From positions 5,910 to 69,909 of the forward strand of contig SHYD01000004.1 in the NCBI GenBank assembly GCA_009692945.1: a DNA stretch of 64,000 nt, given 5' to 3'. Shown here one piece after another: positions 15,598 to 59,600 of the stretch. Source of the stretch: Dehalococcoidia bacterium. Its GTDB lineage: Bacteria; Chloroflexota; Dehalococcoidia; SHYD01. A program made the translations under genes and the position numbers. How positions within the stretch are numbered: position 1 is the stretch's first letter; each line of letters starts with the position of its first letter. Below the pieces are notes generated by a model. It had not been told where the DNA came from. It searched no databases and saw nothing but the letters and a program-made list of their open reading frames with translations.

Positions 15598-15617
15598 AAC
15601 CTCTCCAGAAGGTGTTT

Positions 15618-34133: not shown

Positions 34134-35477
34134 TCAGGGAAGCAGCGAGACCTGGCGATGCCATTCGCCCTGCGGCACCTCGGGCGCCCGGTTCTTCTCC
34201 AGCAGGGGCTCTCCCGCCTGGCTCTTGGATTCGGCCTCCAAGAACAGGCCCCGCACGTACTGGGTGATGGGGCTGAACCGGTCCCAACTCTGCGCCAACC
34301 GGACGCCCTGCATCTGTTCGGCCTGACGCCGAGCGACGTTGGCGTCGTAGGAATGCTCCTCCTGGGGCAGGTCGATGCAGACGTTTTTGGCGGCGTCTCG
34401 CACTGTCCCCAACGGATCCTTGCCCGCTTCGACCATCTCGATCTGCTCTTTCACCAATTCCCGCAGCATGATGACGCCGATGTCGCTCTGGCCCAGGTGC
34501 TCCTTGTCGCGCTGGGCAATTCTGCCCTGGCTCGCCCAGGCGAAGAAGTCCTGAACCAAGACCACCTCGGTGAGGAACTTGCCGTGGTCGTCGTACAGCG
34601 GCAGTTGGTAGACCGGGACCGACTCCTGCGGGGGGACCGGGATGCCCGGCCGGTATACGGTGTAGGTGAGATGGAGGGTGTTCTCGTCGTCCACCGGCAC
34701 CCGGTACTGGAAGGTGTAGCTGCCACTGTTCCCTACCCGGAGCACGTTCGGGTACAGGATAGGGTGACCCACCCGCCATGGCTCGTCTTCTTCGGTATTG
34801 CCTTCAACCACGCGCCGTTTGATCAGACCGTAGTCGAACCGGTCGAAACCGATCTTCTTATGGCGCGAGGCGAAACGCTCGGGGTTCGCCACGCCACGCT
34901 TGCCCCAGACATAATTCATGTAGTAGCCGTGGAGCCACTCGACATGGACAGGGTCCAGCGAGTTTTCCATGGCCTGCAGCCAGTTGCAGGGCAGGTTGGT
35001 CACGCCGATCTGACGGGTGACATTATCCCAAACCAAAAGGTCAAAGCGGGGCAGCAGCGGCGCAGGTTGAGGCCCCAAGTACGCGAACACCAGCCCGCCC
35101 AATTCCTGGACCGGGTAGGCCTTGGTGCGGATGCGGTCTTTGAAGGTGCTGTTCCAGGGCTCGGCAGGTTGCTCGGTGCACTGGCCGGAGTTGTTGAATA
35201 ACCACCCGTGATAGGGACAGCGCAGCCCCTCCTCCTCGGGAATGCCGTACTCCATCGAGACACGGCGGTGAGGGCAGGGCTCGTCGATGAGACCAAGGTT
35301 GCCGGAGCGGTCCTTGTAGAGTACGAGGTCCTCGCCCATGAGGCGCACTTTCTTCACCGGGTTCTCGTCGAGCTCGACCACACCCGCGATCGGATGCCAG
35401 TAGCGGCGCATCATCTCGCCACCGGGGGTGCCCGGACCCACCTGCGTGAGGCGCTCGTTCATCTCTTTGGTCAGCAT
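34134..35477 (-). CDS. Rieske [2Fe-2S] non-heme-iron oxygenase, tandem paralogue
   Basis: CPHRRVSMEYG..CPYHGWLF and NWLQAMENSLDPVHVEWLH. It is collinear with the downstream paralogue along its whole length. Confidence 0.85.
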   Translation of the reverse strand: MLTKEMNERLTQVGPGTPGGEMMRRYWHPIAGVVELDENPVKKVRLMGEDLVLYKDRSGNLGLIDEPCPHRRVSMEYGIPEEEGLRCPYHGWLFNNSGQCTEQPAEPWNSTFKDRIRTKAYPVQELGGLVFAYLGPQPAPLLPRFDLLVWDNVTRQIGVTNLPCNWLQAMENSLDPVHVEWLHGYYMNYVWGKRGVANPERFASRHKKIGFDRFDYGLIKRRVVEGNTEEDEPWRVGHPILYPNVLRVGNSGSYTFQYRVPVDDENTLHLTYTVYRPGIPVPPQESVPVYQLPLYDDHGKFLTEVVLVQDFFAWASQGRIAQRDKEHLGQSDIGVIMLRELVKEQIEMVEAGKDPLGTVRDAAKNVCIDLPQEEHSYDANVARRQAEQMQGVRLAQSWDRFSPITQYVRGLFLEAESKSQAGEPLLEKNRAPEVPQGEWHRQVSLLP

Positions 35478-35588: not shown

Positions 35589-36608
35589 TCAGATGCTGTA
35601 CAACGCCTTGATGTTGTCGTAAACGATCTTTCGCTTGGCGCTGTCGCTCAGGTCCTCCCGCTCCAGGAACTCCTCCAACACCTCCATCACCTCGTCGTCG
35701 GGTTCATGGGGGAAGTCGGAAGCGTACACGAACCGGTCCTCACCCAACACCGACACGCTGAAGGGGAGCACCTCGCGCTCTGCGAGTTCGGCGTGGAAGT
35801 ACACGGGATGATCGCGCACCTGCTCCGAGGCCAGTTTGCGGCCTTTGCCGGCGGTGTTGCGGTCGATCCGTTCGATGAGATAGGGCACCCAGCCGCAGCC
35901 CGCCTCCAGAAACGCCGACTTCAGGTTCGGAAAGCGTTCGAACACCCGGCCGTAGATCATGTGGGTGAACTGCGACATCTGGGCAAAGGCATGGGCCAGC
36001 ACGAAAGCCTGCCCGCCATCGGCGCCGACATGGTCGAGGTTGATGCCGATGCCGTGGGCACGCGCCGCGCCATGGATCGCCACCGGGACCCCCAACCGTT
36101 GGGCCTCGGCGTAGATCGGGTCGAACCGGGCGTCGCCGTAGCCAACATCGAGCCCCGGCGCCGGCAGCAGGCCCGCCACCATCCCCAGGTCGTTCACGGC
36201 CCGGGTCAACTCCTTGGCTGCGGCCTGCGGGTCCTGCACCGGAATGAGGGCCACCGCTTTGAGCCGGGCGTTCCGTTTTAGGAAGTGGTCGGACACGTAG
36301 TTGTTGTAGGCAGCGGCCAGGTCTGCCGCCCAAATCGGGTCACGGGTGAAGCCGAAACCGAGCCCCATGGTCGGGTAGATCACCGACTGGCTGATTTTAG
36401 CGTGGTCCATGAACTCGGACCACCCGTTGGCATCGTAGCGATGGCCACGGGGAGGTAGCCCCCGGCGCCAGCCGTCCAGCGTGGGAAACAGGTAATACGT
36501 GTCCAGCATCACGTCGGGGTACTTGCCGCGCAGGTAGGGCCGGATATCCTCGTCGCGCTCGTAGATATGCCCGTCGCCGTCGATGACCGGGGTGGTTAGC
36601 GTCGCCAT
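35589..36608 (-). CDS. Amidohydrolase-2 family protein
   Basis: VIDGDGHIYE N-terminal metal motif, VAIHGAARAHG, YASDFPHEPD (PF04909-like). Confidence 0.8.
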   Translation of the reverse strand: MATLTTPVIDGDGHIYERDEDIRPYLRGKYPDVMLDTYYLFPTLDGWRRGLPPRGHRYDANGWSEFMDHAKISQSVIYPTMGLGFGFTRDPIWAADLAAAYNNYVSDHFLKRNARLKAVALIPVQDPQAAAKELTRAVNDLGMVAGLLPAPGLDVGYGDARFDPIYAEAQRLGVPVAIHGAARAHGIGINLDHVGADGGQAFVLAHAFAQMSQFTHMIYGRVFERFPNLKSAFLEAGCGWVPYLIERIDRNTAGKGRKLASEQVRDHPVYFHAELAEREVLPFSVSVLGEDRFVYASDFPHEPDDEVMEVLEEFLEREDLSDSAKRKIVYDNIKALYSI

Positions 36609-38748: not shown

Positions 38749-40858
38749 ATGCCGCTGAGCGAAGCCTCTGCCCTCCGCCTGTTGGCCCATGCGTACCGGG
38801 TCCAGACCCGGTACCAGGATGCCAGGGCCGGTGGCAGGATGCGCCACCGGAGCCGCTGCTGGCGGTGCTGCGGGCGCTGGGGGCTCCACTGCATCTGGGC
38901 ATGTCCAGCGTTCGCGAGGCATTGCACGCCCGGCAGCAGGCGCGCTGGCGGCGGATGGTGGAGCCGGTCATCGTGGCGTGGTCCGGAGCACTCCCGCCCG
39001 TGCGCCTGCGCCGAGTGGCCGGGGCCTCGGAGTGGGTGGACTGCACCATAGACCTCGAGGCCGGCGGTTCAACCTCCTGGCGGCTCAGGTGGGAAGACAT
39101 GGCTCTGGAGCGGTCCGTCAGCAGGGACGGCGTTGTGCTTGAAGTTCGAGCTGCGGCCCTCCCACCCAGACTCCCTGACGGTTACCATCGCCTGCGCATC
39201 CAGACGGGGCGGGCGGCGGAGGAAGCACACTGGTTATCGCCGCACCGCCCCGGGCCTGGTTCCCCGAGGCGCGGCCGCGGCCGTCGTGGGGCGTATTCCT
39301 ACCGCTCTACGCGCTCCGGCGTGAGGGCGGGTTCGGCGCCGGCGACCTCGGTGGGCTGCGCCGGTTGGTCGAATGGACGGGCTCGCTGGGAGGCAGCGCG
39401 GTAGGGACGCTGCCCCTCACCGCCGCCTTTCTCGACGAACCCTTCGAGCCGAGTCCCTACGCCCCCGCGAGCCGGCTCTTCTGGAACGAACTGCTCCTCG
39501 ACATCGAGACGATTCCAGAACTGGCCGCGAGCCCGGCCGCTCGGGAGATCTTCGCATCGCCAGCTTTCCGGGAGGAGCGGGAACGGATCGAGCGCTCACC
39601 CCTGGTCGACTACGCCGCGGCGATGTCGCTCAAATGGAGGGTGCTGGAGCCCCTGGACGCCGCGATGACGGCGGCCGATGGCGCGCGGCGCACGGCCTTC
39701 GAAAGCCATCGCAGAGACACCCCCGGGTTTGCAGACTACGCCCACTTCAGGGCGGTGACCGAGCAGCGCCGGCGCCCGTGACCGGACTGGCCCGAACCGC
39801 TGCGATCGGGGCGGCTGCCGAGGGAGGATGGCGCCGCAGCAGCGCGCCACTACCACGAGTACGTGCAGTGGCTCTGCCACGAACAACTGAGCGGGGTAGA
39901 GGAACTTGCCTCCGACCGAGGGGTGCAACTCTATTTGGACCTGCCCCTCGGCGTCCATTACAACAGTTACGACGTCTGGAGGGAACGTGAGTGCTTTGCC
40001 CTGGATGCGGCGGGCGGCGCGCCGCCCGATGCGCTGTTCGCCGGCGGACAGGATTGGGGCTTCCCGCCGCTGCACCCCGAACAGTCCCGCTCCCAGGGCC
40101 ACCGGTACTACATCGGGGCGCTTCGGAACTACATGCGCTATGCCCACATTCTGCGGGTGGAGCACGTGATGGGCATGCACCGGCTGTACTGGGTGCCGAA
40201 CGGCTTCTCAGCCAAACAGGGGGTGCATGTCCACTATCCAGCAGGGGAACTCTACGCCATTCTGTGCCTCGAGTCCCACCGCAACCGCTGCTGGGTGATC
40301 GGAGAAAACCTCGGAACCGTTCCATCTTATGTCAATGTTGCACTCCAGACCCGCGGGTTGCACTCGATGTACGTGGGCCCGTTCTCCCTCACGGGCGATC
40401 CCGCGCAGCCCCTGGCGCCACCGCCGGACGGTTCCCTTGCCGGCATGAACACTCACGATACGCCGACCTTCGCCGGCTATTCGGCAGGGCGCGACATTGA
40501 AGACCTCATCGACCTCGGGCTGCTGGACCGGACGGAGGCTGAGCACCAGATGGAATGGCGGTGGGAAGCCCTCGACACCCTCGCCGGCTACTGCCGGCGG
40601 CAGGGTTGGATCGGCCAAGGCTCACCCGCGCCGGAGGAATTGTTGGCGGCCTGCTTGAAGTATCTTGGCCGGAGCCAAGCGGAGATGGTGCTGGTGAACC
40701 TGGAGGACCTCTGGGGCGAGACGGATCCGCAGAACGTGCCGGGAACTTGGAGGGAGCGGCCGAACTGGCGGCGGCGGGCGCGTCTGACGCTGGAGGAGTT
40801 CACCGCCTCGCCGGAGGTGCGGGATACCCTTCGGGGCATCATTCCTTCCGGCGGTTGA
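38749..40858 (+). pseudogene. malQ: 4-alpha-glucanotransferase (amylomaltase) with two frame breaks and one in-frame TGA
   Basis: ATG 38749 follows AGGAAGGA. Homology runs through three frames: ..RVQTRYQDA | QDAPPEPLLAVLRALGAPL.. | LVIAAPPRAWFPEARPRPSWGVFLPLYALRREGGFGAGDLGGLRRLVEWTGSLGG.. . Breaks lie at the GGG run 38825-38827 and near 39226-39232. TGA 39779-39781 sits where a Trp is expected (RRP*PDWPEPL). The C-terminal part, ORF 39863..40858, is intact. Confidence 0.8.
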
Positions 40859-41059
40859 GCAGCCGTCGCTGTCGGACTGGTCGATCGTGAACTGACCAGC
40901 GGCTGTTTTCGCACGGGCATTGAGTTCACGCCGCGTTTGGTTGACAGGGCAGGAGCCCTCCACTATCCTGCCACCAAGCCGGGCACGGCGCCACACGAGC
41001 CGCCGTCCCATCGCTGCCGCATTTCCGGCATCCATCCATCTACCGTTAGGAGCGCATCT

Positions 41060-42142
41060 ATGCCATCCCGAGCCACCATCGACGCCGACGGGCATGTTTT
41101 CGAGGACCTCGCCCGGATCGGCAAGCTGATGCCGAAGGAGTACTGGACCAACAACGCCCCTCCCTCCAACGCCTTTGCGCCGCTCGACCACATGCACACC
41201 GCGCTGGGCCGCACGCTGCCGGGAGCGTTCGGCGACGGCAAGCCCGTCAACTCCCCCGAATGGTTCCACTTCTTGGAAGACGTGGGGGTCGAGGCGACGG
41301 TGCTGTACCCCACCGCCGGACTGGCCTACGGCCGGATGAACGACGTCGACTGGGCCATCGCCGCCTGCCGGGCTTACAACGACTGGCTGCACGAAGCCTA
41401 CGTGGCCAAGAGCCCCCGCTTTCGGGGGATGGCGCTGATCCCGCTGCAGGATCCCGATGAGGCCGTGGTGGAACTGCGGCGGGCCGTTACCGAACTCAAG
41501 ATGACCGGCGCCATGCTCCCTTCCACCGGGCTGAAGGCGCACCTCGGATCCAAGGAGTACTGGCCGGTGTACGCCGAAGCCGAGCGGCTGGGATGTGCGC
41601 TGGCGCTCCACGGCGGCAGCCACATCAATCTGGGTTTCAACGACCTCAACATGTTCGCCCCGATCCACGCCCTGGGCCACCCCTACGGCATCATGATCGG
41701 CTTCGCCGGAATCATCTTCAACGGCGTGCTGGACCGGTTCCCCGGAGTCCGCGTCGGTTTTCTCGAAGCGGGGGTGGGCTGGCTGGCGTTCACGCTGGAG
41801 CGCTTCGACGGCTCCTACAAGGCGTTCACCCCCATCGACCTCCGGGGCCAGTACATGCAGTTCAAGTCCGGCGAGCGCAAACCGAGCCACGTCATCCGCC
41901 GCCACATCGAAGAGGGGCGGATCTTCGTCGGCGTCGAGGGCGATGAGCCCACCCTGCCCCACGCGGTGAAGACCGTGGGCAACAAACCCTTCATGTTCTC
42001 CACCGACTACCCCCACGAAGTCACGAATGAGACCTGCAAGGAGGAGATCCAGGAACTGCTGGAAAACGAAGAACTGAGCGACGCCGACAAGGAGGCGATC
42101 CTCTACACCAACGCCAAGCGGTTTTACGCCCTCGGCGATTAG
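41060..42142 (+). CDS. Amidohydrolase-2 family protein
   Basis: ATG 41060 lies inside ORF 40937..42142. TIDADGHVFE, LALHGGSH, FSTDYPHE. Confidence 0.8.
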   Translation: MPSRATIDADGHVFEDLARIGKLMPKEYWTNNAPPSNAFAPLDHMHTALGRTLPGAFGDGKPVNSPEWFHFLEDVGVEATVLYPTAGLAYGRMNDVDWAIAACRAYNDWLHEAYVAKSPRFRGMALIPLQDPDEAVVELRRAVTELKMTGAMLPSTGLKAHLGSKEYWPVYAEAERLGCALALHGGSHINLGFNDLNMFAPIHALGHPYGIMIGFAGIIFNGVLDRFPGVRVGFLEAGVGWLAFTLERFDGSYKAFTPIDLRGQYMQFKSGERKPSHVIRRHIEEGRIFVGVEGDEPTLPHAVKTVGNKPFMFSTDYPHEVTNETCKEEIQELLENEELSDADKEAILYTNAKRFYALGD

Positions 42143-44224: not shown

Positions 44225-45787
44225 TCACACCGCGGCGACCTCAGCCACCGGCCCGTGGACCTCGGGGAAGACCAATGATTTGACCACCACCGGCACCGCC
44301 TGGGCGGGGTAGATCATCTCGCCGATGTCGATGAAGTCGAGCTCCCGCAGGTGAATGCTGTCGATGGACACCACCTGGTTGCTGATGCCCATATCGTTGC
44401 GGATGATTTCCCCCACCAGTTTGCCGAAGTCGTGGGTGAACACAATGATGATGTTCATCCCATTGGCAATAGTTTTGGGCAGGCCCATACAGATCCCTTC
44501 AGCGAGCGCTCGCAGCAGTTGGTAGCGGGGGGTGCCGCGCCAGCCGATGGCGAGCGCCACCTCCTGTTCGCCCTCCTCCATATCGAAGCGCCGGAAGGCC
44601 CGCTGGATGGCGTCCCGCAACTCAACGGCGTCGATCTCCTCGTTCTCGCCCAGCACCGGGTACAGCACTGGAACATTGCGGATCGGGAGCACGCTCTCGT
44701 CGGAAATCGAGATGGTGTTGCCACTCACCTGAACTGTGAACTGCGACGCCCCCATAACAGTGGCACGGATCCCTTCCTGGGGTTGCTGCACCGGGCCGGG
44801 CAATTCAGCGGTGCGGTCGCGCACCGATTGGGCCAGCGGCAGCGCCAGATCCCCGAAGTTCCGCATCTCCCGCTGGTAAACGTACTCCGAGACACCGCCG
44901 GAAAACACCACCGCGTCCACCGGTTGCCGCGTTGAGAGTTCGGGGGTCACCAACAGGTCCCGCGAGAGTTGGGAGAGCGGCGCAGGGCGGGTCATCTCGA
45001 ACATGCAATCGGCGAACCGCTGCGCCAGAGCTTCCCGATGCGCGGGCGACAGGACCTCACCCATGCGCAGTTCGATGCCGAGCGTATCGGCCACCGTCCG
45101 CGCCGCTGGTTCGATACGGATGATCCGGTCATCCTCATCGGTGGCCACCAACCGGCCGCCAACGCTCATCGCTGCGGTTTCCAACACGTGCCCATCATGC
45201 ACTCGGGCGAACTTGGTGGTGCCGCCCCCGATATCAATATTTAGCACGGTGCTCGGCCCCTGCCGGGAGAGGTGCACCGCCCCAGAACCGTTGGCCGCCA
45301 GCACCGCCTCCATGTTGTGCCCTGCTGAGGCACAGACGAACTTCCCGGCCTCGCCGGCGAACAGGTGGGCGATGGCCCTGGCGTTGTGCCGTTTCACGGC
45401 TTCACCGGTCAGGATGATGGCGCCGGTATCGATGTCGTCGGGCGTGAAACCGGCCTCCCGGTACGCCTGAGCGACGAACTGCTGCAGCGCCTCACCGTTG
45501 ATGGTGTACTCCGGCGTATAGGGCGTTAGCAGGATGGGAGACCGGTGCAGCACCTTCCGTTCCACCACCACGTAGCGGCTCGACAGGTACTGCCCGAGCC
45601 GCTGGAGGTGCAGCTTGGAGAACATCAGATGCGATGTGGAGGAGCCGATGTCGATACCGACGGTGGTCAGTTCGATATTGTCGGCATAGTAGAAGTCGTT
45701 CTTCGGGATGGGCCCATCGAAGGCCTCTGCCGCGTGCTCGTGATCATCGTGAAAATCGTGGTCGTCGTGCAAAGCCTTCTCCCTCAC
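44225..45787 (-). CDS. EutA-family (ASKHA-fold) ATPase with His/Asp-rich N-terminal extension
   Basis: It is collinear with E. coli EutA as I recall it (VGIDIGSSTSHLMFS, GAIILTGEAVKRHNA, VLNIDIGGGTTKF, VVFSGGVSEYVY, VVVKSLVFP). The start is GTG 45787, or TTG 45772 which follows GGGAGAAGG. The N-terminus reads ..HDDHDFHDDHEH.. Confidence 0.8.
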   Translation of the reverse strand: MREKALHDDHDFHDDHEHAAEAFDGPIPKNDFYYADNIELTTVGIDIGSSTSHLMFSKLHLQRLGQYLSSRYVVVERKVLHRSPILLTPYTPEYTINGEALQQFVAQAYREAGFTPDDIDTGAIILTGEAVKRHNARAIAHLFAGEAGKFVCASAGHNMEAVLAANGSGAVHLSRQGPSTVLNIDIGGGTTKFARVHDGHVLETAAMSVGGRLVATDEDDRIIRIEPAARTVADTLGIELRMGEVLSPAHREALAQRFADCMFEMTRPAPLSQLSRDLLVTPELSTRQPVDAVVFSGGVSEYVYQREMRNFGDLALPLAQSVRDRTAELPGPVQQPQEGIRATVMGASQFTVQVSGNTISISDESVLPIRNVPVLYPVLGENEEIDAVELRDAIQRAFRRFDMEEGEQEVALAIGWRGTPRYQLLRALAEGICMGLPKTIANGMNIIIVFTHDFGKLVGEIIRNDMGISNQVVSIDSIHLRELDFIDIGEMIYPAQAVPVVVKSLVFPEVHGPVAEVAAV

Positions 45788-45910
45788 CGCCAGATGGTGG
45801 CCGCAATCCGGCCGGTTGGGGCCGGGCCCGCCCCGTTCATTGTAGCCGGGACATGGCAGCGCCGGGCGTCCCGCATTCGGTCCGCCCGGCGCGCCTGAGA
45901 CGATGGGACG

Positions 45911-47026
45911 TCAGCGGGCAGCCCGTGCGCCGACGAACTCCTGCATGCGCGACTCGATGCCCAGTTTCGCCAATTCACCGCGGAACAGGTCGTGGATGCG
46001 GGGGTCCTCATTCTCGTACTCCACCTGGAACCCACCATCCTCGACCGACTTGTCCATGCCCTCGTAGTTGCGGATCTTGCTCTCCAGCACCGGGTAGCGG
46101 ACGCCGCCGAAACCGAGCGCCAGGTAGCGGGAGGGCGTCGATGCCGTATTGAAGTGCTGGTGGAAGGTGGGGCCGTCGGGCGGCGCGTACAGCATCCCCG
46201 GCTTCCAATCGACCCGTTTGGCGCCCACGGGGTTCTGTCCCTTTTCCCACAGCAACGAGTAACCGTGCCCGCTGACGCAGAAGATGTGGGCGCCGGCGTT
46301 GTGGGCGTGGGCCTTCTTGTAGGTGCCCACGGGGAATTCGGAGATGTGAGCGTGCAGGGCGCTGTCGGCCAGGCAGAACTGGATGTTACGGCCGCCCGCC
46401 CCCCGTGCCTTCCATTCAGGAAGCTGGAAACTCACCAGGTCCGGCACAAAGGAGGTCTCCCAATTGTGGCGGCCCGGTCTGACCGCGCGGAACTCGCCCT
46501 CGCCTTTAAAGTAGCGCTCCTCGGCCAGGCGGTCCCGGAACAGGTAGTTGTTGTTGTAGATGAAATCGGTGTTGTGGAAGATGTTCAGGAGGATGGGCAG
46601 GTTGGTCAGCGCCGCGAAGCGGGCGGGCTCCGACCCGGACCCGTTGAAGTGCTGATGCCCGGCGTTCATCGGGATCCCGAACAGAGAGCCCGGCCCCCAC
46701 TCGAAGGTGTACTTGGCGCCGTCGGCCGCCTGAATCGAGGTGGCGCCGCGGCCCTTCAGCACGTAGATCAACTCGTCGTGCAAATGCTGTTCAGGATTGA
46801 GATGTCCGCCCGGAGCGATCTCCGCCAGGTAGCAACTCAGGTAGTCGCTGCGGCCCACCAGGTGCACGTAGGCGCCCTTGCCGCCGAGGCGGGGCCACGG
46901 CTTCAGTTCGGCATCGAGGCAGTCGATGATGTACCCCTCGATGACCGGAACCCCCTCGGTCTTCAGGAACTCGCTGTAGGCAAACCGCAGGTAATATGGA
47001 TTCTCAATCGCTAATTCGTCGCCCAT
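45911..47026 (-). CDS. Bicupin protein (gentisate-1,2-dioxygenase-like architecture)
   Basis: ATG 47026 follows GAGGAGGAG, inside ORF 45911..47107. N-barrel QHLHDELIYVLKGRG..NAGHQHFN; C-barrel KKAHAHNAGAHIFCVSGHG..PTFHQHFN. Confidence 0.75.
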   Translation of the reverse strand: MGDELAIENPYYLRFAYSEFLKTEGVPVIEGYIIDCLDAELKPWPRLGGKGAYVHLVGRSDYLSCYLAEIAPGGHLNPEQHLHDELIYVLKGRGATSIQAADGAKYTFEWGPGSLFGIPMNAGHQHFNGSGSEPARFAALTNLPILLNIFHNTDFIYNNNYLFRDRLAEERYFKGEGEFRAVRPGRHNWETSFVPDLVSFQLPEWKARGAGGRNIQFCLADSALHAHISEFPVGTYKKAHAHNAGAHIFCVSGHGYSLLWEKGQNPVGAKRVDWKPGMLYAPPDGPTFHQHFNTASTPSRYLALGFGGVRYPVLESKIRNYEGMDKSVEDGGFQVEYENEDPRIHDLFRGELAKLGIESRMQEFVGARAAR

Positions 47027-47066
47027 CACTCCTCCTCTTGCTGAACCGGAACGGCCGCCCGTTCCG

Positions 47067-48143
47067 CTACTTGGCCTGGAGCGCCTGCCATTTGACGCGC
47101 TCTTCATTGAACAACTGCCGTATTTTAGGGTCCTCCTCCTCGTATTCTATCTGGGAGCGTCCCGCGCCGAGGCGTTCGTCCGGCTGGAACAAGCGGGGCA
47201 TCCGGTATTTCTGGCTGCCCCACCGGAAGGCCAAATAGCGGGCCGGGTTGTCGCTGTAGTTGAAGTGCTGATGCCACCAGACATCCGGCGGGGAGAAGAA
47301 CGCGCCCGGCTGCCAGTCGACCCGCACCGCGGGGTCATCGTCGGGCCACATCAGACTGTAGCCCTCTCCCGCCAGGATCACGATGTGGGCGCCCCCGCCG
47401 TGCCGATGACCCTTTTTGTAGTCGCCCGGCTTGAAGTCGGACACGTGGGAGCCGAAGGTGTTGCCACTGATCTCGAAACTGGTGCTGGAGCCGCCACCGC
47501 CCCGTTCGGCCCAGAACTCGAGTTTCAGGTTGCGGGCATCGGGAATAAAGTTGGTTTCGAGGCTGCGCTTGCCGATCAGTTGCCCCTCGTCGGCAAAGAA
47601 CGCCGACTGGCCGTCGAAGCGGTCCCGAAACTCGAAGGGATTGCTGAACAGGAACTCCTCGTTGCGGAAGTACATCATCAGCAGCGGCATGGTGGAGACC
47701 GCAACCAGGCGGACCGGCGCATCGCCCTGCCCATTATGCATCTGATAGCCCGCATTCAACGGCACCGAGAACAAGCTGCCCGCCTGCCATTCAAAGGAGA
47801 TTTTCGGGCCGTCGCCCTGCCACACCGTGGTGGCGCCCCGCCCGGACAGGATGTAGTAGTCGATTTCGAACAGGTGCCGGAGCGGGTTCCAACTCTTCCC
47901 CGCCGGAATTTCCGCCACGAACGCACCGGTGGTCCGCTCGGACCCCACTAGATCGACGAGGGCGCCCGAGCCGCCGGTCCAGTCCCATTGCGCCAGCGAA
48001 ACCTTGTTGAGGTCGTCAATATGATGGCCGGTGAGAATCGGGATGCGCTGACGGTTCATCCACTCCTGATACGCGTCCACCCGCTTGATGGACGTATCAG
48101 TCAGCAGGCGTTGAGATGGGGTCATCTGGGCTTCTTGGGTCAT
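47067..48143 (-). CDS. Bicupin protein, paralogue with degenerate N-terminal metal motif
   Basis: GGAGG lies upstream. N-barrel RHLFEIDYYILSGRG..NAGYQMHN; C-barrel KKGHRHGGGAHIVILAGEG..VWWHQHFN. It is collinear with the downstream paralogue. Confidence 0.75.
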   Translation of the reverse strand: MTQEAQMTPSQRLLTDTSIKRVDAYQEWMNRQRIPILTGHHIDDLNKVSLAQWDWTGGSGALVDLVGSERTTGAFVAEIPAGKSWNPLRHLFEIDYYILSGRGATTVWQGDGPKISFEWQAGSLFSVPLNAGYQMHNGQGDAPVRLVAVSTMPLLMMYFRNEEFLFSNPFEFRDRFDGQSAFFADEGQLIGKRSLETNFIPDARNLKLEFWAERGGGGSSTSFEISGNTFGSHVSDFKPGDYKKGHRHGGGAHIVILAGEGYSLMWPDDDPAVRVDWQPGAFFSPPDVWWHQHFNYSDNPARYLAFRWGSQKYRMPRLFQPDERLGAGRSQIEYEEEDPKIRQLFNEERVKWQALQAK

Positions 48144-48262
48144 GCATCCTCCAGGTGTGGTTCGGAACGGTCGTTGCGGAGGGCGGCTCCCCCCGGGTGG
48201 CGGCCCAACGCGAAGCCTATTCTACTCCGCCCAGACCGCACCGGCCAACCGTTTGGACCGTG

Positions 48263-48450: not shown

Positions 48451-49362
48451 CTAGTGCTTCCCGGCGCCTCGTAGGCGTGGGTCCAGCAGGTCCCGGAGGG
48501 CATCGCCAAAGACGTTGCTGCCGAACACCGCTAGGGTGAGGACCAGTCCGGGCCACAGCATGGTCCATGGGGCATCGTGGAAGTGGCTCAGCGAGTCGCC
48601 GCTGAGCATCTGGCCCCAGGTGGGAAACGGCGGCGGCACGCCGAAGCCGAGGAAACTCAGCGTTGCTTCAGCGAGGATGATGCGGCCAAAATCGATGGAG
48701 GCGAGGATGATCACCGGCGCAAAGGTGTTGGGAACGATATGCCGGAGCATGATCCACGGCGTGGTGGCTCCCATGGCCTGGGCGGCCTCGATGAAAGGAG
48801 CACTCTTGATGGACATTACGGAACTTCGCACCACCCGTGATCCGCTGATGCCGCCGAGCGAGAGAATGAACACCACGGTGAACAGGCCGGGGCCAATGAT
48901 GGACGCCAACGCCAGCAGGATCAGGAGGGCAGGCAGCGCAATCCAGGTGTTGACGAGCAGCTGCTGGATAAGCGCATCCACCCGTCCACCCAGCCATCCG
49001 GACAGAACACCCAACGTGGTGGCGATGGTGACGGAGATGACCACGGTGGTGAGGGCCACGTAGATCGACACCCTGCCTCCGAAGATGATCCGGCTCAGCA
49101 GGTCCCGTCCGAGGAAGTCGGTGCCCAAGAGGTGATCCGCGTTGGGCTCGGTCAGGATGTCGGCGAGGTTGATCGTGTCGTAGGGGTAGGGCGCGAGGAG
49201 GTCGGCCAGCAATGCCATGGCGAGCATCGCCACGACAATGGCGGCGCCGAACGCTCCCAGCGGCTTCTCGCGGACCAGCCGCCGAAGGAATCCCAGGAAC
49301 CTGCCCCGTCCCGTGGCCCAGGTCCGGAGCGGCGCCGCCTCCCAAGCGATTTCGTGTGCCAT
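48451..49362 (-). CDS. Peptide/nickel-type ABC permease (DppC/OppC-like)
   Basis: ORF 48451..49416 trimmed to ATG 49362. ADHLLGTDFLGRDLLSRII, and the EAA-like loop SAPFIEAAQAMGATTPWIMLRHI. Confidence 0.85.
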   Translation of the reverse strand: MAHEIAWEAAPLRTWATGRGRFLGFLRRLVREKPLGAFGAAIVVAMLAMALLADLLAPYPYDTINLADILTEPNADHLLGTDFLGRDLLSRIIFGGRVSIYVALTTVVISVTIATTLGVLSGWLGGRVDALIQQLLVNTWIALPALLILLALASIIGPGLFTVVFILSLGGISGSRVVRSSVMSIKSAPFIEAAQAMGATTPWIMLRHIVPNTFAPVIILASIDFGRIILAEATLSFLGFGVPPPFPTWGQMLSGDSLSHFHDAPWTMLWPGLVLTLAVFGSNVFGDALRDLLDPRLRGAGKH

Positions 49363-49390
49363 CACTATCCCCCAGGCCGCACAGATAGCC

Positions 49391-50341
49391 TCAACTGTAC
49401 CGGACCCGAGGGTCAAGCCAGCGGTAGCTCAGGTCCACCAGCAGGTTGCCCCCTATCACCACCAGTGCGTAGAGGAAGATCACCGACTGCACGGTGGGGT
49501 AGTCCCGGAACCCCAGTGCTCTAAGCGTGTAGCTGCCGATCCCAGGGAGGTCGAAAATCCGTTCGATCACCACCGTCCCCCCCAGCATCGTCATAAATTC
49601 GAGGCCAAGCAGGGTCACCACCGGAATCAACGAGTTCTTGAGGGCGTGGCGGGTGACCACCACTCGCTCCTTCAGTCCTTTGGCCCAGGCGGTCCGGATA
49701 TAGTCTTGCCGCAGCACCTCCAACAACGTGCCCCGCATCATCCGGGCAATCCTTGCGATGTATTGGAGCGCCAGGATGCTGGCGGGCAACAGCAAGATCC
49801 TAAGGTTGGCCAAGGGGTCGTCGAAGAATGCCACGTAATCATAGCGCGGCAGCACACCCAGATAGACCGAGGCAAAGGTGACGACCATGACACCGATCCA
49901 GAAGCCCGGGAGCGAGAGTCCCAGTACCGCCAAAGACCGCAACACATAATCGATGGCCGTCTCCTGCCGTAGTGCCGCAATCACTCCGATGGGGATCCCG
50001 ATCAAGATCACCAGGACCAGCGCGAACAGCGCCAGTCCAATGGTCACCGGCCAACGCCAGAAGATCTCATCTGCAATGGGCGTCCTCGACAGAATGGAGA
50101 TCCCCAAATCGCCCCGGATCAGCCCTCCCAGCCAGGCCAGGTACCCTTCAGGGCCGGACTTGTGCAGCCCCAGGATCTCTGCGATCCGTTCCGGGTCGGC
50201 GTTGGCGGCGCCCCCCATCTCTCCCATCAGGACGGTGATGGTATCGCCCGGAAGAAAGCGGTGCATCGCATACACCAGCACCGACACGATGAACACCGTG
50301 GGGATCATTTCCAGCAATCGCCGGCCGATGTATTGTTGCAT
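49391..50341 (-). CDS. Peptide/nickel-type ABC permease (DppB/OppB-like)
   Basis: MQQYIGRRLLEMIPTVFIVSVLVY.., QDYIRTAWAKGLKERVVVTRHALKN. Confidence 0.9.
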   Translation of the reverse strand: MQQYIGRRLLEMIPTVFIVSVLVYAMHRFLPGDTITVLMGEMGGAANADPERIAEILGLHKSGPEGYLAWLGGLIRGDLGISILSRTPIADEIFWRWPVTIGLALFALVLVILIGIPIGVIAALRQETAIDYVLRSLAVLGLSLPGFWIGVMVVTFASVYLGVLPRYDYVAFFDDPLANLRILLLPASILALQYIARIARMMRGTLLEVLRQDYIRTAWAKGLKERVVVTRHALKNSLIPVVTLLGLEFMTMLGGTVVIERIFDLPGIGSYTLRALGFRDYPTVQSVIFLYALVVIGGNLLVDLSYRWLDPRVRYS

Positions 50342-50391
50342 CTACCCCCCGTTAATGAACCGCGTGGGCGCCCGCGGCCCGACGGCCGGTA

Positions 50392-52077
50392 TCAGTTGCC
50401 CTTCAGCCAGATGTCCTGCAACATCAGGCCCGTTTGCTCCCGGAAGGTGATCTCGTTGAAGCTGAACTTCCCCTTAACCCTGCCCTGCAGCGCGTTGAAG
50501 TTGAAAAACGACGGGGTTGTGCTCACGTACGCTTGATCGATAATCCGCAACTGCGCCTGCTTCGTCAACTCCAGCCGTTTGGCATCGTCTACCGTCTTCA
50601 GGAGTTGATCGACGATCTTATCGTATTCGGGATCGGCGATGTGGCCGCGGTTGTCGGAGAAGTTCTGGCCGCTGCGCAGGTTGCTCAGCGGGTTGGTGTC
50701 GAGGGGCTCGAGGTACGCCATCTTGCTGGCGCTGAGCTTGTCGTAGATGCCAACGGTGTGGGTGGACTGATGCTCAGCCTGCTCCACCACTTTCAGCGAG
50801 ACATTGAACCCGCCGGTTTTCATCATGACCGGCAGCACCTGGAGTATCTCGTTGTAGGGCGAGCCATACGCCAGCGTCCCTTCCAAGGCCACCGAGAGCC
50901 CGTTGGGATAGCCCGCCTCGGCCAGCAGCTTCTTGGCCTCGGTGGGGTTGTATTCCACCCACTTCCGGATGTTCGCCGGGAGATCGGCGGGTTTCAGGGC
51001 GCCCTTTACGTAGAACGGGGACAAGGCAGACACGTTGCCCTCACCCTTCAGGATGCCCTTCACAATCGCCTCGCGGTCGATGGACATCGACAGCGCGCGG
51101 CGCACGTTGACGTTGTTGAAGGGCTCTTTGTCGTTGCGCATGTAAATGCCAAAGGGCGACGACGCTTCACATTTGATCCACTGGAGGTTGGGATTCGCCT
51201 GGGAGAAATTGGCCTTCTCCGAGGCCGTCACCTCGTCAAGCAGGTCGAGTTGCCCGGTGCGGAGCGCTGCGGCGCGGGTCGCATCGTCCCGCATGATCGA
51301 GATCTCCACGCCGTCCAGGTAGGGCTTGCCCGGTTTCCAATAGTCGGGGTTCTTCTCGTAAATCGCCTTCACGCCCGGCGTGTAGCTCTTCAGGATGAAC
51401 GGCCCGGTGCCGATGAGGGTCTCGGGCTTCGAGAAGTCTCCCGAGGCGCCGCCCGCCTCTTTCGGAATGATGACGGCGCTGCGGTAGCTGAGGAATTCGT
51501 ACCCGATGGTGGGCATGGCCTCCCGGAGCTTGATGACCACCGTGTTCTTGTCGGTAGCCTCCATGGAGGTGATGGCCTTCACCATGTTCTTCAATTCGCC
51601 CCGGTCGAACATGCGCTTATAGCTCCACACCACATCCTCGGCGGTGAGCTCACGCCCGTTCACCGGCGGCCGGTTCTGGAACTTCACGCCCTTGCGGATG
51701 TCGAGCTGGAGGGTGGTGTCGTTGGTGAAGCGCCACTTCTCGGCGAGGGAGGGCACCAGGAACTGCTGGCAGTACTCCGTCTCGTTGGCGGCCACCACCG
51801 CGTATTCGTCCACCAACCCGTGCAGGCGGCGGGCATCGCGCCGGCCACCCGGGATGTGGGGCTCAAAGCCGCCCTGAGGGTCGTCCCGGTTGTAGTACTT
51901 GAAGATCCCACCGGGCTGCGGCTTCTCGTCGCTGACCGCGGGGGCAGTCAACGGCGCGGCCGGGCTGCCGCCGGCCGCCGGCTGGTTGGCCCTGCCGCAG
52001 CCCATCGCGGCCAGCGCCGTCAGCGCCGCCGCAGCCCACCACCAACGCGCCTTCGTGGCCAATTTCAGTTGATTCAT
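50392..52077 (-). CDS. Family-5 (peptide/nickel) solute-binding lipoprotein
   Basis: ATG 52077 follows GAAGGAGA, inside ORF 50392..52092. Lipobox LAAMGC. The long periplasmic-binding-protein body has typical family-5 length. Confidence 0.85.
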   Translation of the reverse strand: MNQLKLATKARWWWAAAALTALAAMGCGRANQPAAGGSPAAPLTAPAVSDEKPQPGGIFKYYNRDDPQGGFEPHIPGGRRDARRLHGLVDEYAVVAANETEYCQQFLVPSLAEKWRFTNDTTLQLDIRKGVKFQNRPPVNGRELTAEDVVWSYKRMFDRGELKNMVKAITSMEATDKNTVVIKLREAMPTIGYEFLSYRSAVIIPKEAGGASGDFSKPETLIGTGPFILKSYTPGVKAIYEKNPDYWKPGKPYLDGVEISIMRDDATRAAALRTGQLDLLDEVTASEKANFSQANPNLQWIKCEASSPFGIYMRNDKEPFNNVNVRRALSMSIDREAIVKGILKGEGNVSALSPFYVKGALKPADLPANIRKWVEYNPTEAKKLLAEAGYPNGLSVALEGTLAYGSPYNEILQVLPVMMKTGGFNVSLKVVEQAEHQSTHTVGIYDKLSASKMAYLEPLDTNPLSNLRSGQNFSDNRGHIADPEYDKIVDQLLKTVDDAKRLELTKQAQLRIIDQAYVSTTPSFFNFNALQGRVKGKFSFNEITFREQTGLMLQDIWLKGN

Positions 52078-52190
52078 GGTCTCCTTCTGCACGGCGGCGA
52101 AGCCGCCTGGGCCCGCACCGTCACCAACAGATTAGGGCATTCTATCCAGGATTGGGGACGCCCGTCAATTCGCGTGGGGGATCCGAATTC

Positions 52191-55630: not shown

Positions 55631-56959
55631 ATGCTGAGCAAAACCGACAACGAACTGCTGACCCGGGTCGGTCCCGGCACCGCCATGGGCGATACGCTGC
55701 GGCAGTACTGGATGCCAGCGCTGCTCAGCACCGAACTCCCCGACCCCGATGGGGCGCCGCTGCGCCTGCGGCTGCTGGGTGAGGACCTGGTGGCGTTCCG
55801 GGATTCCTCCGGCCGGGTGGGGCTCGTCGCCAACAACTGCCCCCACCGCGGCGCTTCGCTGTTCTTCGGGCGCAATGAGGAGCACGGGCTGCGCTGCGTG
55901 TACCACGGCTGGAAGTTCGACCTGACCGGGGCCTGCGTCGACATGCCGAACGAGCCGGCTGAGAGCAACTTCAAGAGCAAGGTCCGCCTCACCTCCTATC
56001 CCTGCCAGGAGCGCAACGGCCTGGTGTGGGCCTATATGGGCCCGCTGGCCCAGCCACCGGCCCTGCCCGCTCTCGAATGGAACCTGGTGCCGGAGGATCA
56101 GTACTACCTGACCAAGCGGGTGCAGGCCTGCAACTGGGCGCAATCCCTGGAGGGAGGCATCGATTCGAGCCACGGGTCGTTCCTGCACAGCGACCTGCAG
56201 CGCCCCGAGGGCGTCAACGCCCGGGATGGCGTGCGGGTCGGACTGCTGCCCTACATGTACGACGACCGCCACCCCCGCTTCGAGGTGATGGACACGCCCT
56301 ACGGGGCGCACATCGCGGCGCGGCGCAGCGGCGAGCCGGACAGCTACTATTGGCGCATAACCGAGTTCCTGCTGCCGTGGTACACCATGATCCCGCCCTT
56401 CGGGAAGAACCCCACCTTCAGCGGCCACGCTTGGGTGCCCATGGACGACGAGCACACCGTCACCTGGAGCGTCCACTGGCACCCCACCCGCGCCCTGACC
56501 GAACGGGAACTCGATTACTGGCGCTCCGGCAAACAGATCCACAGCGGACCCCACCAGTACGCCCCCAAGACCTCGGCGCCCGCAGGCGCCTGGGTTCCCG
56601 CCGCCAATGTCGCGAACGACTACTTTATCGACTACGAAGCCCAGCGCAACATCCGGTTCACCGGGCTCGCTGGCATTTGGCTTCAGGACCAGGCGATGCA
56701 GGAGAGCATGGGAGCGATCTACGACCGCACCAAAGAGCACCTCGGGGCCAGCGATACGGGCGTGATCAAAGCCCGCCAACTCTGGCTGCGGGCGCTGCGC
56801 AACCTGCGCGATCAGGGCCTCACGCCCAGCGGGGTGATGGAGCCCGAGACCTACCGGGTCCGGCCGGTCTCGGCCCTAGTCCCTCGGAATACCCCGTGGC
56901 TGGAGGCCACCCGCGCCCTGTTTGAGGCCGTCGCGGGCTCGAACTACGACGCCCCTTAG
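55631..56959 (+). CDS. Rieske [2Fe-2S] non-heme-iron oxygenase (phthalate-family-like alpha subunit)
   Basis: GAGGAGG lies upstream. CPHRGASLFFG..CVYHGWKF, and NWAQSLEGGIDSSHGSFLH. Confidence 0.85.
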   Translation: MLSKTDNELLTRVGPGTAMGDTLRQYWMPALLSTELPDPDGAPLRLRLLGEDLVAFRDSSGRVGLVANNCPHRGASLFFGRNEEHGLRCVYHGWKFDLTGACVDMPNEPAESNFKSKVRLTSYPCQERNGLVWAYMGPLAQPPALPALEWNLVPEDQYYLTKRVQACNWAQSLEGGIDSSHGSFLHSDLQRPEGVNARDGVRVGLLPYMYDDRHPRFEVMDTPYGAHIAARRSGEPDSYYWRITEFLLPWYTMIPPFGKNPTFSGHAWVPMDDEHTVTWSVHWHPTRALTERELDYWRSGKQIHSGPHQYAPKTSAPAGAWVPAANVANDYFIDYEAQRNIRFTGLAGIWLQDQAMQESMGAIYDRTKEHLGASDTGVIKARQLWLRALRNLRDQGLTPSGVMEPETYRVRPVSALVPRNTPWLEATRALFEAVAGSNYDAP

Positions 56960-57812: not shown

Positions 57813-57848
57813 CCCCAACCAAAACCACTGAGAGTGAGTCAAACTGCC

Positions 57849-58640
57849 ATGGGTGTTGAAGGTAGGGTCGCCGTCATCACCGGCTCGGCCCGCAACATCG
57901 GAAAAGCCTGCGCCGTGGAGTTGGCGCGCCAAGGCGCCAAGGTGGTCATCAACGCCCGCAGCAGGGACAAGGTGGACCAGACGGTCGACGAGATCAGGGC
58001 AATGGGGGGATCGGCCTACCCCAGCTACCAGTCGGTCGCGACCAAAGAGGGCTGCGAGGCGCTGATCCAGGACGCCATCAAGGGCTTCGGCGCGGTGGAC
58101 ATCCTGGTCAACAACGCAGCCATCGTGACCTTTCATTACATTCACGAAATGCCCGATGACGAGTGGGACAACGTCATCAACACCAACCTCACCGCCTACT
58201 TCCGCACCACCAAGGCGGTGCTGCCGATCATGATGGAACGGAAATGGGGACGCATCATCAACATGTCGTCCCATGCCGGCCTCACCGGCACCACGCTGCG
58301 CTGCCACTACGCCGCGGCCAAGGGCGGCATCCACGCGTTCACCAAGGCAACCGCCAAGGAGTACGGGAAGTACAACATCACCGCCAACGCCATCGCCCCG
58401 TTCGTGGGCAAGGATGAGGTGGAGGATGCTCCGGAGCAGTACGGTGCACTCTACCGGCCCCAGCCGGCTGAATTCGCCGCCCAGAACACCGCCGCGTCCG
58501 AAGCCGCTATGGCAGTGGGCGGGGGAAAGCGTTCCAGCCCAGCCACCGTCGCCCCCATGTGCGCCTTCTTCGCCTCCGAGGAGGCGTGGTACATCACCGG
58601 CCAGGTGATATCGGTCGGCGGCGGCCGGTGGATGGGATGA
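57849..58640 (+). CDS. SDR paralogue 1 of 4 (most divergent C-terminus)
   Basis: ATG 57849 was chosen by alignment with the paralogues (MGVEGRVAVITGSARNIGKAC). NNAAI, and NMSSHAGLTGTTLRCHYAAAKGG. Confidence 0.85.
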   Translation: MGVEGRVAVITGSARNIGKACAVELARQGAKVVINARSRDKVDQTVDEIRAMGGSAYPSYQSVATKEGCEALIQDAIKGFGAVDILVNNAAIVTFHYIHEMPDDEWDNVINTNLTAYFRTTKAVLPIMMERKWGRIINMSSHAGLTGTTLRCHYAAAKGGIHAFTKATAKEYGKYNITANAIAPFVGKDEVEDAPEQYGALYRPQPAEFAAQNTAASEAAMAVGGGKRSSPATVAPMCAFFASEEAWYITGQVISVGGGRWMG

Positions 58641-58674: not shown

Positions 58675-59460
58675 ATGAGCATCGAAGGACGGGTGGCGGT
58701 GATCACCGGCTCCGCTCGGAACATCGGCAAGGAGTGTGCGCTGGAACTGGCGCGCCGGGGCGCCAAGGTCATCATCAACGCCCGCAGCCGCGAGAAAGTC
58801 GACGAAACCGTCGAGGAGATCCGGGCGATGGGCGGCAAGGCGCTGCCCAGCTACCACTCGGTGGCCACCCGTGAGGGCTGCGAGGGGATCATCGAGGACG
58901 CCGTCAAGGGCTTCGGCACCATCGACATCCTGGTGAACAACGCCGCCATCATCACCTTTGACTACATCCACGAGATGTCCGAGGAAGACTGGCTGAACGT
59001 CATCGAGGTGAACCTCACCGCGAGCTTCCGGACGACCAAGGCGGCTCTACCCTACATGATGGAGAAGAACTGGGGTCGCATCGTCAACATGTCCTCCCAC
59101 GCCGGGCTGACCGGCACCACCATGCGGGCGAGCTACGCCGCGGCCAAGGGCGGCATCAACGCCTTCACCAAAGCGACGGCCAAGGAATACGGCAAGTACC
59201 ACATCACCGCCAACGCCATCGCCCCCTTCGTCGGCCAGAGCGAGAAGGTGGAGCACCCCGAGCACTACGGCGCCAACTATGGCCCGCAGCCCGAGGCGTT
59301 CCGTGCCCAGAATACGGCGGTCTCCATCGGCGCCATGGCCATCCCCGGCCGTTCGGGCCCCGAGACCGTGGCGCCGATGGTGGCGTTCTTCGCATCCGAG
59401 GAGGCCTGGTACATCACCGGCCAGATCATATCGGTCGGCGGGGGCCGCTGGATGGGCTGA
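58675..59460 (+). CDS. SDR paralogue 2 of 4
   Basis: MSIEGRVAVITGSARNIGKEC.., YAAAKGG, IPGRSGPETVAPMVAFFASEEAWYITGQIISVGGGRWMG. Confidence 0.9.
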   Translation: MSIEGRVAVITGSARNIGKECALELARRGAKVIINARSREKVDETVEEIRAMGGKALPSYHSVATREGCEGIIEDAVKGFGTIDILVNNAAIITFDYIHEMSEEDWLNVIEVNLTASFRTTKAALPYMMEKNWGRIVNMSSHAGLTGTTMRASYAAAKGGINAFTKATAKEYGKYHITANAIAPFVGQSEKVEHPEHYGANYGPQPEAFRAQNTAVSIGAMAIPGRSGPETVAPMVAFFASEEAWYITGQIISVGGGRWMG

Positions 59461-59473
59461 TGGACGGCTTCAG

Positions 59474-59600
59474 ACTCGGGATTCGGGTACGGGGGTGTGC
59501 AGGGGGCAAAGCCTGCGTGTCCGAGCTTGTCGAAGGGCCGGGGGACTGGGGGTGTTCCCCCAGAAACAACAATCTCTTCTAGTGGGGCCCGGGGAACGAC
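59474..59600 (+). repeat. Divergent module A repeat inserted between SDR paralogues 2 and 3
   Basis: GACTCGGGATTCGGGTACGGGGGTGTGCAGGGGGCAAAGCCTGC..GGGCCGGGGGACTGGGGGTGTTCCCCCAGAAACAACAATCTCTTC. Confidence 0.55.

Follow-up and report, generated by a model that had tools for sequence, protein, structure and literature searches.

A 64,000-nucleotide (nt) stretch from a Dehalococcoidia bacterium of the Chloroflexota (GenBank assembly GCA_009692945.1, contig SHYD01000004.1, positions 5,910 to 69,909 of the forward strand), hereafter the window, encodes a homolog of EutA next to two paralogous two-barrel cupins, here called bicupins A and B. EutA is the ATP-dependent reactivase of the B12-dependent ethanolamine ammonia-lyase, from which it exchanges damaged cobalamin. 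The pairing of EutA-like and bicupin genes recurs across bacterial phyla and suggests a new kind of ATP-driven metal-enzyme helper. In the window, the pair belongs to a row of six co-directional genes on the minus strand, which run from an SBP_bac_5 gene through two BPD_transp_1 genes, bicupin A and bicupin B to the EutA homolog. The features of the locus are as follows.

50392-52092, minus strand: binding protein, SBP_bac_5 (Pfam)
49391-50341 and 48451-49416, minus strand: two permeases, BPD_transp_1 (Pfam)
48219-48248, minus strand: sigma-70-like match TTGGCC-18-TAGAAT, a consensus match only
47067-48143, minus strand: bicupin A, 358 amino acids, Cupin_2
45911-47026, minus strand: bicupin B, 371 amino acids, Cupin_2 in two matched stretches
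45817-45835, minus strand: G+C-rich hairpin GGGGCGGGCCCGGCCCC (coding strand) located between bicupin B and the EutA-like gene, from a sequence scan
44225-45787, minus strand: EutA-like ASKHA ATPase (PF06277), 520 amino acids from a GTG start or, more likely, 515 amino acids from a TTG start at 45772
45734-45772, minus strand: codons of the N-terminal peptide MHDDHDFHDDHEH, which holds the conserved His/Asp motif of the EutA-like clade

Gene order, strand and gaps are as stated in a preliminary description of this stretch, and all motifs quoted there (ASKHA motifs, His/Asp stretch and the cupin motifs of both barrels) were found. Bicupin A is separated from bicupin B by 40 nt, and bicupin B from the EutA-like gene by 123 nt (GTG 45787) to 138 nt (TTG 45772), while the sigma-70-like promoter match lies in a 307-nt gap 5' of bicupin A. 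The hairpin, which lacks a T-run on the coding strand, might serve between the cistrons as a stability or attenuation element, and it could set the expression ratio of enzyme and helper. For bicupin B, a longer open reading frame (ORF) from 47107 was rejected in favor of the ATG preceded by GAGGAGG. We tentatively treat bicupin A, bicupin B and the EutA-like gene as one operon; this is part of the overall explanation developed below, to which we give slightly less than even odds.

Profile hidden Markov model (HMM) searches, which the preliminary description had proposed, assigned both EutA and Cupin_2. The PF06277 match (E=8.7e-131) aligns protein residues 39 to 507 with model positions 2 to 474 of 475, and identity to Escherichia coli EutA is 33% over the full length of the protein. 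The cut-offs of all four NCBIfam EutA equivalog models were missed (best score 378 bits against a cut-off of 598; 224 to 279 bits against cut-offs of 769 to 952 for the other three). The window protein contains GIDIGSSTSH and NIDIGGGTT; the phosphate-1, phosphate-2 and adenosine motifs are invariant in 42 homologs, and DxG (D46/G48), DxGGGT (D185/G187-T190) and GG (G297/G298) are invariant in the clade. Judging from these motifs, the protein is probably an active ATPase. Its AlphaFold2 (AF2) model (predicted local distance difference test [pLDDT] 85.5) has a two-lobed ASKHA fold with Foldseek matches to Ppx/GppA, HgdC/HadI, PilM, MreB and EutJ, and a sequence search of the PDB found no solved structure of the EutA family. 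Four residues (H53, C152, E226 and W416) are at least 95% conserved in 209 clade sequences and differ from E. coli EutA. An HgdC-type Fe-S activase was rejected as an identity, since the clade has only one invariant Cys. The closest homologs are named Chloroflexota or Dehalococcoidia in public records.

To assess how widely the pairing occurs, a profile of the EutA-like clade was run against one genome per GTDB species, which gave at least 551 confirmed matches; the best 80 loci were analyzed, and bicupins at these loci were detected by tblastn and a family HMM. Bicupins of the family were present in 62 of the 80 loci, and in 60 of them a co-directional bicupin run directly adjoins the EutA-like gene, on its upstream side in 52 loci and on its downstream side in 8. 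Most of these runs consist of a single bicupin (47 loci), with two, three and four bicupins in 8, 2 and 3 loci, respectively, and five copies were found in Gemmatimonas. The distance from the bicupin stop to the EutA-like start has a median of 49 nt, is 20 nt or less in 20 of 48 cases and is an overlap in 4. Seven phyla are represented among the 80 loci (Chloroflexota, Pseudomonadota, Gemmatimonadota, Acidobacteriota, Actinomycetota, Bacillota and Desulfobacterota), with source groups comprising Chloroflexota (Dehalococcoidia, SAR202 and Chloroflexia), Alpha-, Beta- and Gammaproteobacteria, Gemmatimonas, Vicinamibacteria, Actinomycetota, Alicyclobacillus herbarius and Syntrophales. The pair is also plasmid-borne in Phyllobacterium and Sinorhizobium. 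The adjacency noted in the window is hence conserved in other genomes, which the preliminary description had made a condition of its idea.

Some SAR202/Dehalococcoidia loci (L009 to L012, L014 to L016 and L019 to L021) encode two divergent EutA-like paralogs, approximately 40% identical and approximately 8 kb apart. Where the contig is long enough (L011, L012, L015, L019 and L020), each paralog has its own upstream bicupin. Genes for a gamma-glutamyltranspeptidase (GGT) and a TctA transporter lie nearby in these two-paralog loci, and the N-terminal barrels of their bicupins are stripped of all His.

A tblastn search with E. coli queries detected none of EutB, EutC, EutL, EutM, EutT and EutH, either in the 64-kb window or in 84 related loci that were searched together with up to 10 kb of sequence to either side. 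The absence of eutB, eutC and shell genes from the window had been claimed before and stands; cobalamin-biosynthesis and glycyl-radical genes, which that claim also covered, were not searched for specifically. The concern that eutBC might lie just outside the cluster in relatives is answered by their absence within 10 kb on either side in the 84 loci, which extends to all of the best 80 loci drawn from at least 551 genome stretches encoding relatives of the query. A canonical ethanolamine ammonia-lyase reactivase was therefore rejected: none of the contextual features tested for that role was found, and the role is very unlikely.

The window protein also differs from canonical EutA at its N-terminus, where it carries the stretch HDDHDFHDDHEH, composed of five His, six acidic residues and one Phe. 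Matches to the four NCBIfam EutA models and to the Pfam model start at residues 39 to 41 of the protein, and the extension is absent from 102 canonical enterobacterial EutA sequences, in which the phosphate-1 loop is preceded by fewer than 10 residues, none of them His. It had been cautioned that the stretch might lie 5' of the true start codon. No Shine-Dalgarno sequence precedes the GTG at 45787, whereas AGGGAG ends 6 nt before the TTG at 45772, which is in frame, so the product likely begins with MHDDHDFHDDHEH, in agreement with the MH[D/E] N-terminus that is usual in the family. Either start leaves the His-rich stretch translated, and the stretch is conserved at the protein level, which places it inside the coding region.

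A His/Asp-rich N-terminus was found in all 120 top homologs (58% to 89% identity), in nearly all EutA-like ORFs of the 80 loci and in essentially all 209 clade members. The conserved motif reads M-H-[D/E]-x-x-F-x-H-x-H, with M-H-[D/E]-[L/E]-x-F-[D/E]-H-x-H as the consensus outside Chloroflexota (e.g., MHDLEFEHLH, MHELGFDHGH and MHDFDLDHEH), and the N-terminal H7 and H16 are at least 95% conserved (n = 209). MH[DE] is positioned 26 to 42 residues ahead of the phosphate-1 loop in 104 of the 209 sequences, and [V/L/I]H[DE], compatible with GTG or TTG starts, takes that position in 26 more. Residues 1 to 33 are predicted to be disordered (pLDDT <50, AF2). Two loci (L059 and L066) have an EutA-like gene without the motif, and bicupins are likewise absent from them. 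The His/Asp N-terminus is a conserved motif and not a compositional accident.

Tails rich in His and Asp are typical of metallochaperones for Ni, Co and Zn, such as HypB, UreE and SlyD. The MH[D/E] N-terminus further resembles, as a likeness of sequence only, the nickel site of HypA, where Met1 (via its amine), His2 and Glu3 of an invariant N-terminal MHE bind Ni (PMC5557546). For the window protein, the match to a HypA-type Met1-His2-Glu/Asp3 depends on the predicted start at TTG 45772, which is supported by its Shine-Dalgarno sequence.

The two window bicupins are 40% identical to each other. Their C-terminal barrels carry the motifs AHAHNAGAH and GHRHGGGAH, each with HQHFN, while their N-terminal barrels read QHLHDE..HQHFN in one and RHLFEID..YQMHN in the other. 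Bicupin B has a C-terminal site (H240/H242/H247/H291) plus an additional full His site in the N-terminal barrel; in bicupin A, the C-terminal site is intact and the N-terminal barrel is short of three His. Across 222 bicupins, the C-terminal barrel residues H227, K238, H240, H242, H289, Q290, H291 and N293 are invariant and H247 is kept in 83%, giving a family signature of H-x10-K-x-H-x-H-x4-H ... H-Q-H-F-N. The N-terminal barrel is variable (H81 in 87%, H83 in only 32%, H124 in 62% and H126 in 66%), and a full HxH..H there, as in bicupin B, occurs in 48 of the 222 as a peculiarity of Chloroflexota; the majority of the family, like bicupin A, has no complete N-terminal site. This pattern of conservation places the metal and active site of the family in the C-terminal barrel. 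The preliminary description had envisaged a heteromer of one active and one degenerate bicupin. That idea did not hold up as a general model and was rejected: the invariant C-terminal site is kept by both paralogs, the N-terminal site is variable, most flanking runs (47 of 60) hold just one bicupin, and many bicupins are encoded away from any EutA-like gene.

The bicupin family, with approximately 338 clusters at 50% identity (E <=1e-30), is abundant in Chloroflexota, marine SAR202 genomes among them. Bicupin B has two beta-barrels in its AF2 model (pLDDT 91.4), and the best Foldseek matches of this model are OxdC, vicilins, MncA and gentisate 1,2-dioxygenase (GDO), with template modeling (TM) scores of approximately 0.47, 12% to 16% identity and E of approximately 1e-16. 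In phmmer comparisons with Mn bicupins of the OxdC/MncA type, E values were 3e-4 to 0.02 (14% identity, TM approximately 0.47); with these values, neither sequence homology nor a superimposable two-barrel arrangement was established, and membership in that group was rejected. GDO (TIGR02272) was likewise rejected, with 18.6 bits for bicupin A against a cut-off of 442 and no match for bicupin B, and the GDO structure 3bu7 was matched over one barrel only (E=4.6e-7). Sequence searches of the PDB and NCBIfam gave no family assignment and no close PDB bicupin. In MncA and OxdC, the metal is buried and kinetically trapped.

Bicupins also occur in other settings. Locus L089 (5707-9104) has three tandem family bicupins set among genes of cytochrome-c maturation, with CcmB/CcmC-like genes upstream and CcmE downstream, and no EutA-like gene lies within 8 kb of them. 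A lone family bicupin (P0220) in L087 (2080-3337) stands approximately 5 kb from a pair formed by a Fur-family regulator and NicO, possibly by coincidence. In the window itself, a pirin (Pirin + Pirin_C, 62129-63214), approximately 14 kb from the cluster, is a bicupin of a different family.

Neighboring genes, called with a GC3-based caller seeded on known genes, provide a possible indication of the metal. In seven loci from two phyla, the next gene downstream of the EutA-like gene encodes a NicO/NiCoT transporter, which lends support to a link with metal. Six of these transporter genes are NicO-like and lie in alphaproteobacterial loci. The seventh is the NiCoT gene of Alicyclobacillus herbarius (PF03824, E=8.5e-93), where the order is zinc-dependent alcohol dehydrogenase (Zn-ADH), IclR, Rieske/LigXa, bicupin, EutA-like and NiCoT. 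The binding protein and permeases of the window have nickel-transporter models as their best NCBIfam matches (Opp2B at 287 bits, Opp4C/Opp2C/NikC and Opp5A_nikA), all below cut-off. No ATPase gene accompanies this ATP-binding cassette (ABC) importer at 48451-52092, and the ABC ATPases of the window are found only at 14685-16454 and 27956-29095. The importer arrangement is the same in two close relatives (L003 and L005).

A census of first neighbors (n = 146) gave MFS_1 (14), UbiD (11), GGT (10), NicO (7), Haem_oxygenas_2 (5) and TctC (4), and second neighbors (n = 130) added NMT1-type binding proteins, TctA, short-chain dehydrogenases/reductases (SDRs), class II aldolases and FmdA/AmdA. UbiD decarboxylases occur in 18 of 84 loci, sometimes in the order UbiD-bicupin-EutA. 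Related loci also hold LigXa-type Rieske oxygenases, Amidohydro_2 and RraA-like proteins, IclR and LysR regulators, and transporters of the tripartite tricarboxylate (TTT) and major facilitator superfamily (MFS) types.

In two further arrangements, the EutA-like gene is accompanied by something other than a family bicupin. An operon of Rhodospirillaceae-like Alphaproteobacteria (L025:8444-13114) encodes a UbiD-family decarboxylase, an EutA-like protein with MDVHDLGFEHLH, a NicO-like protein (approximately 242 amino acids), two monocupins, RidA and an ornithine cyclodeaminase (OCD)/mu-crystallin protein. Operons of this UbiD type recur in L026, L028, L044, L046, L049, L058 and L063; the family bicupin is absent from them, and their small monocupins have no specific similarity to the bicupin barrels. 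In the chloroflexotal locus L047 (9704-12239), the N-terminus of the EutA-like protein is exceptionally rich in His (…HSGHTHSSDTPYHSHDE…FHHHHGDHTHDDE), and a heme-oxygenase-like "iron-containing redox enzyme" (PF14518, the family to which five first neighbors of the census belong) directly follows the EutA-like gene in place of the cupin.

We tentatively favor, at what we would call nearly an even chance, the explanation in which enzymes of the bicupin family are matured or reactivated by the EutA-like protein, a dedicated factor that would depend on ATP and would probably handle Ni or Co. It would be an accessory ATPase of EutA lineage dedicated, in the window, to the two paralogous bicupins, each with a catalytic metal site in its C-terminal barrel. 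The ASKHA ATPase cycle would be used much as EutA uses it on ethanolamine ammonia-lyase, with the target enzyme bound and transiently opened, and a metal ion buried in the cupin barrel would be delivered or exchanged in place of cobalamin. The flexible N-terminal M-H-[D/E]-x-x-F-x-H-x-H peptide may hold this metal, for which Ni(II) and Co(II) are the likeliest candidates. A single ATPase would attend to one or several bicupin paralogs; in one lineage, its clients would instead be small monocupins. We infer physical contact between ATPase and bicupin, ATP dependence, the binding and identity of the metal, and the chemistry of the bicupins. A bolder and more doubtful version of this explanation would make the protein the first ASKHA metallochaperone, in which a HypA-like peptide captures Ni(II) or Co(II) and a reactivase mechanism loads bicupins, or some monocupins or heme-oxygenase-like oxidases, the clients being enzymes of aromatic or carboxylate breakdown in Chloroflexota (including SAR202), Alphaproteobacteria and other phyla. 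A search of the open-access literature found no paper linking EutA homologs to cupins, nickel or metallochaperone function; matches to EutA together with cupin concern the unrelated ectoine EutA or the EutQ cupin.

Several observations weigh against a dedicated, metal-handling maturation factor. Of six bicupin homologs on long contigs, four lack an EutA-like gene within 8 kb and only two have one within 8 to 10 kb. Bicupins outnumber the EutA-like ATPase, and their frequent distance from EutA-like genes implies that the ATPase is used in trans or is not obligatory. Many Chloroflexota members carry the His/Asp stretch inside a longer N-terminus and not at residue 2. NicO/NiCoT genes adjoin the EutA-like gene in only 7 of 80 loci, corresponding to approximately two independent lineages, and none of CobW, HypB and UreE was found among 276 neighboring genes. 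The window ABC importer falls under every nickel-model cut-off and could carry peptides or substrate. In addition, UbiD, not a bicupin, is immediately upstream of the EutA-like gene in 8 to 10 loci.

Among the alternatives, the one that fares best, although still unlikely, is that the protein assists folding, assembly or reactivation of the cupins and does not itself carry metal, releasing instead an oxidized or wrong metal or a dead-end ligand, with the N-terminal tip as a docking peptide. EutA and DdrAB, on which this analogy draws, eject damaged cofactor and do not deliver it; the conserved Phe of the motif suggests a docking element, and most loci have no metal transporters. However, at least three conserved His together with the MH[D/E] N-terminus are typical metal ligands, and NicO/NiCoT neighbors are present in two phyla.

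It is rather improbable that the EutA-like protein is a catalytic kinase subunit with an ASKHA fold, phosphorylating a substrate or activating it with ATP in another way before a bicupin or UbiD converts the activated substrate. The ASKHA subunits of acetone and acetophenone carboxylases activate their substrates with ATP in this way, and an intact set of ATP motifs, tight operon coupling and the presence of UbiD in 18 of 84 loci (sometimes as UbiD-bicupin-EutA) are consistent with such a role. The clade nonetheless aligns over its whole length with EutA, a reactivase directed at a protein, and not with kinases of small molecules, and a conserved, disordered His motif would serve no evident purpose in a kinase. 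Moreover, one to five divergent bicupins accompany each ATPase and many bicupins have no adjacent ATPase, which fits poorly with a catalytic subunit of fixed stoichiometry.

The placement of UbiD immediately upstream in 8 to 10 loci that have no family bicupin raises a further alternative, which we consider quite improbable, namely that the protein reactivates another neighboring cofactor enzyme, for instance by exchange of damaged prenylated flavin mononucleotide in UbiD, and that the bicupins are bystanders. This would parallel the exchange of a damaged organic cofactor by EutA, but UbiD is present in 18 of 84 loci against 62 of 80 for bicupins, loci of the UbiD type keep monocupins and NicO just downstream, and the window contains no UbiD gene. 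Finally, an ordinary reactivase of ethanolamine ammonia-lyase or another B12 enzyme encoded elsewhere in the genome, as suggested by the full-length Pfam match and by public annotations that call these proteins EutA, can be dismissed as highly improbable given the lack of EutB and EutC in the window and within 10 kb of the 84 loci, the missed curated EutA cut-offs, the clade-specific invariant residues and N-terminal motif foreign to canonical EutA, and the conserved operon with bicupins.

The window and many of the related loci are islands of catabolic genes, which bears on what the bicupins may do. The catabolic genes of the window comprise three LigXa-type Rieske oxygenases, two Amidohydro_2 proteins, a VOC protein, a Zn-ADH, four tandem SDRs and the pirin, and include the following.

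32658-34010, 34134-35477 and 55631-56959: LigXa-type Rieske oxygenases
35589-36608 and 40937-42142: Amidohydro_2 proteins
57834-58640, 58675-59460, 59497-60477 and 60513-61298, plus strand: four tandem SDR paralogs
6913-7731: a fifth SDR

The Rieske oxygenase at 55631-56959 is 45% identical to the one beside the bicupin cluster of Alicyclobacillus herbarius. The Zn-ADH was not counted as a conserved partner, the Alicyclobacillus copy being only 29% identical to that of the window. This catabolic-island context suggests oxidized aromatic or carboxylate substrates; the bicupins probably act on such compounds as dioxygenases or decarboxylases.

Elsewhere in the window, 38865-40858 is occupied by three plus-strand ORFs that follow one another in different frames (179, 138 and 331 amino acids), the last of which looks by eye like the C-terminal part of MalQ (4-alpha-glucanotransferase, GH77). 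The syntenic region of L003 has one intact gene of 706 amino acids, and frameshifts, a pseudogene or assembly errors are possible in the window.

The proposed function, if true, would have several consequences. To our knowledge, the well-studied nucleotide-dependent metallochaperones (HypB, UreG, CooC, MeaB and the COG0523 family) are all G3E GTPases; an ASKHA ATPase would then be a second, independent solution to nucleotide-dependent metal delivery, and delivery of metal by it would put the clade in a metallochaperone class of its own. The proposed function would also explain how the correct ion reaches cupins of the cytoplasm, in which the metal is buried and kinetically trapped, and it would correct a widespread annotation, as public records describe these proteins as "ethanolamine ammonia-lyase reactivating factor EutA." It would further give a handle on an uncharacterized bicupin family, which in the loci examined has for neighbors the Rieske, UbiD and amidohydrolase genes that typify aromatic breakdown. 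Should the link prove only chaperone-like or catalytic, the conserved operon would still represent a new two-component enzyme system.

Comparison with known systems shows which parts of this arrangement are familiar. EutA itself shares full-length homology (33% to the E. coli protein), the same ASKHA ATP motifs and a presumed client encoded alongside, whereas the EutA-like clade has no nearby eutBC or shell genes, is partnered with a bicupin and bears an N-terminal extension of 35 to 40 amino acids with the His motif, as well as the clade-specific H53, C152, E226 and W416. DdrAB and GdrAB are similar in being ASKHA/Hsp70-like ATPases that reactivate a specific neighboring enzyme by ATP-driven cofactor exchange, but they form a separate subfamily, have two subunits and act on B12 enzymes. 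With HypA/HypB and UreE/UreG, the putative likeness lies in a short N-terminal peptide of metal-binding type that is on, or works with, an NTPase; M-H-[D/E] resembles the HypA MHE nickel site, the His-rich stretches recall those of some HypB, UreE and SlyD proteins, and a Ni/Co transporter gene sometimes adjoins the EutA-like gene. There is, however, no kinship in sequence or fold with HypA/HypB or UreE/UreG, the ATPase here being of the ASKHA type and not a G3E GTPase, and the putative target is a cupin and not a hydrogenase or urease. On the side of the client, OxdC, MncA and GDO share the two-barrel cupin fold with HxH...H inside the barrel and are the best structural matches, but they are only 12% to 16% identical to the window bicupin, and the conserved site of the present family is C-terminal and has its own signature. 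We know of no reported need for an ATPase partner in the OxdC, MncA and GDO families. What would be new here for a reactivase-family ATPase is its proposed client and its N-terminal appendage.

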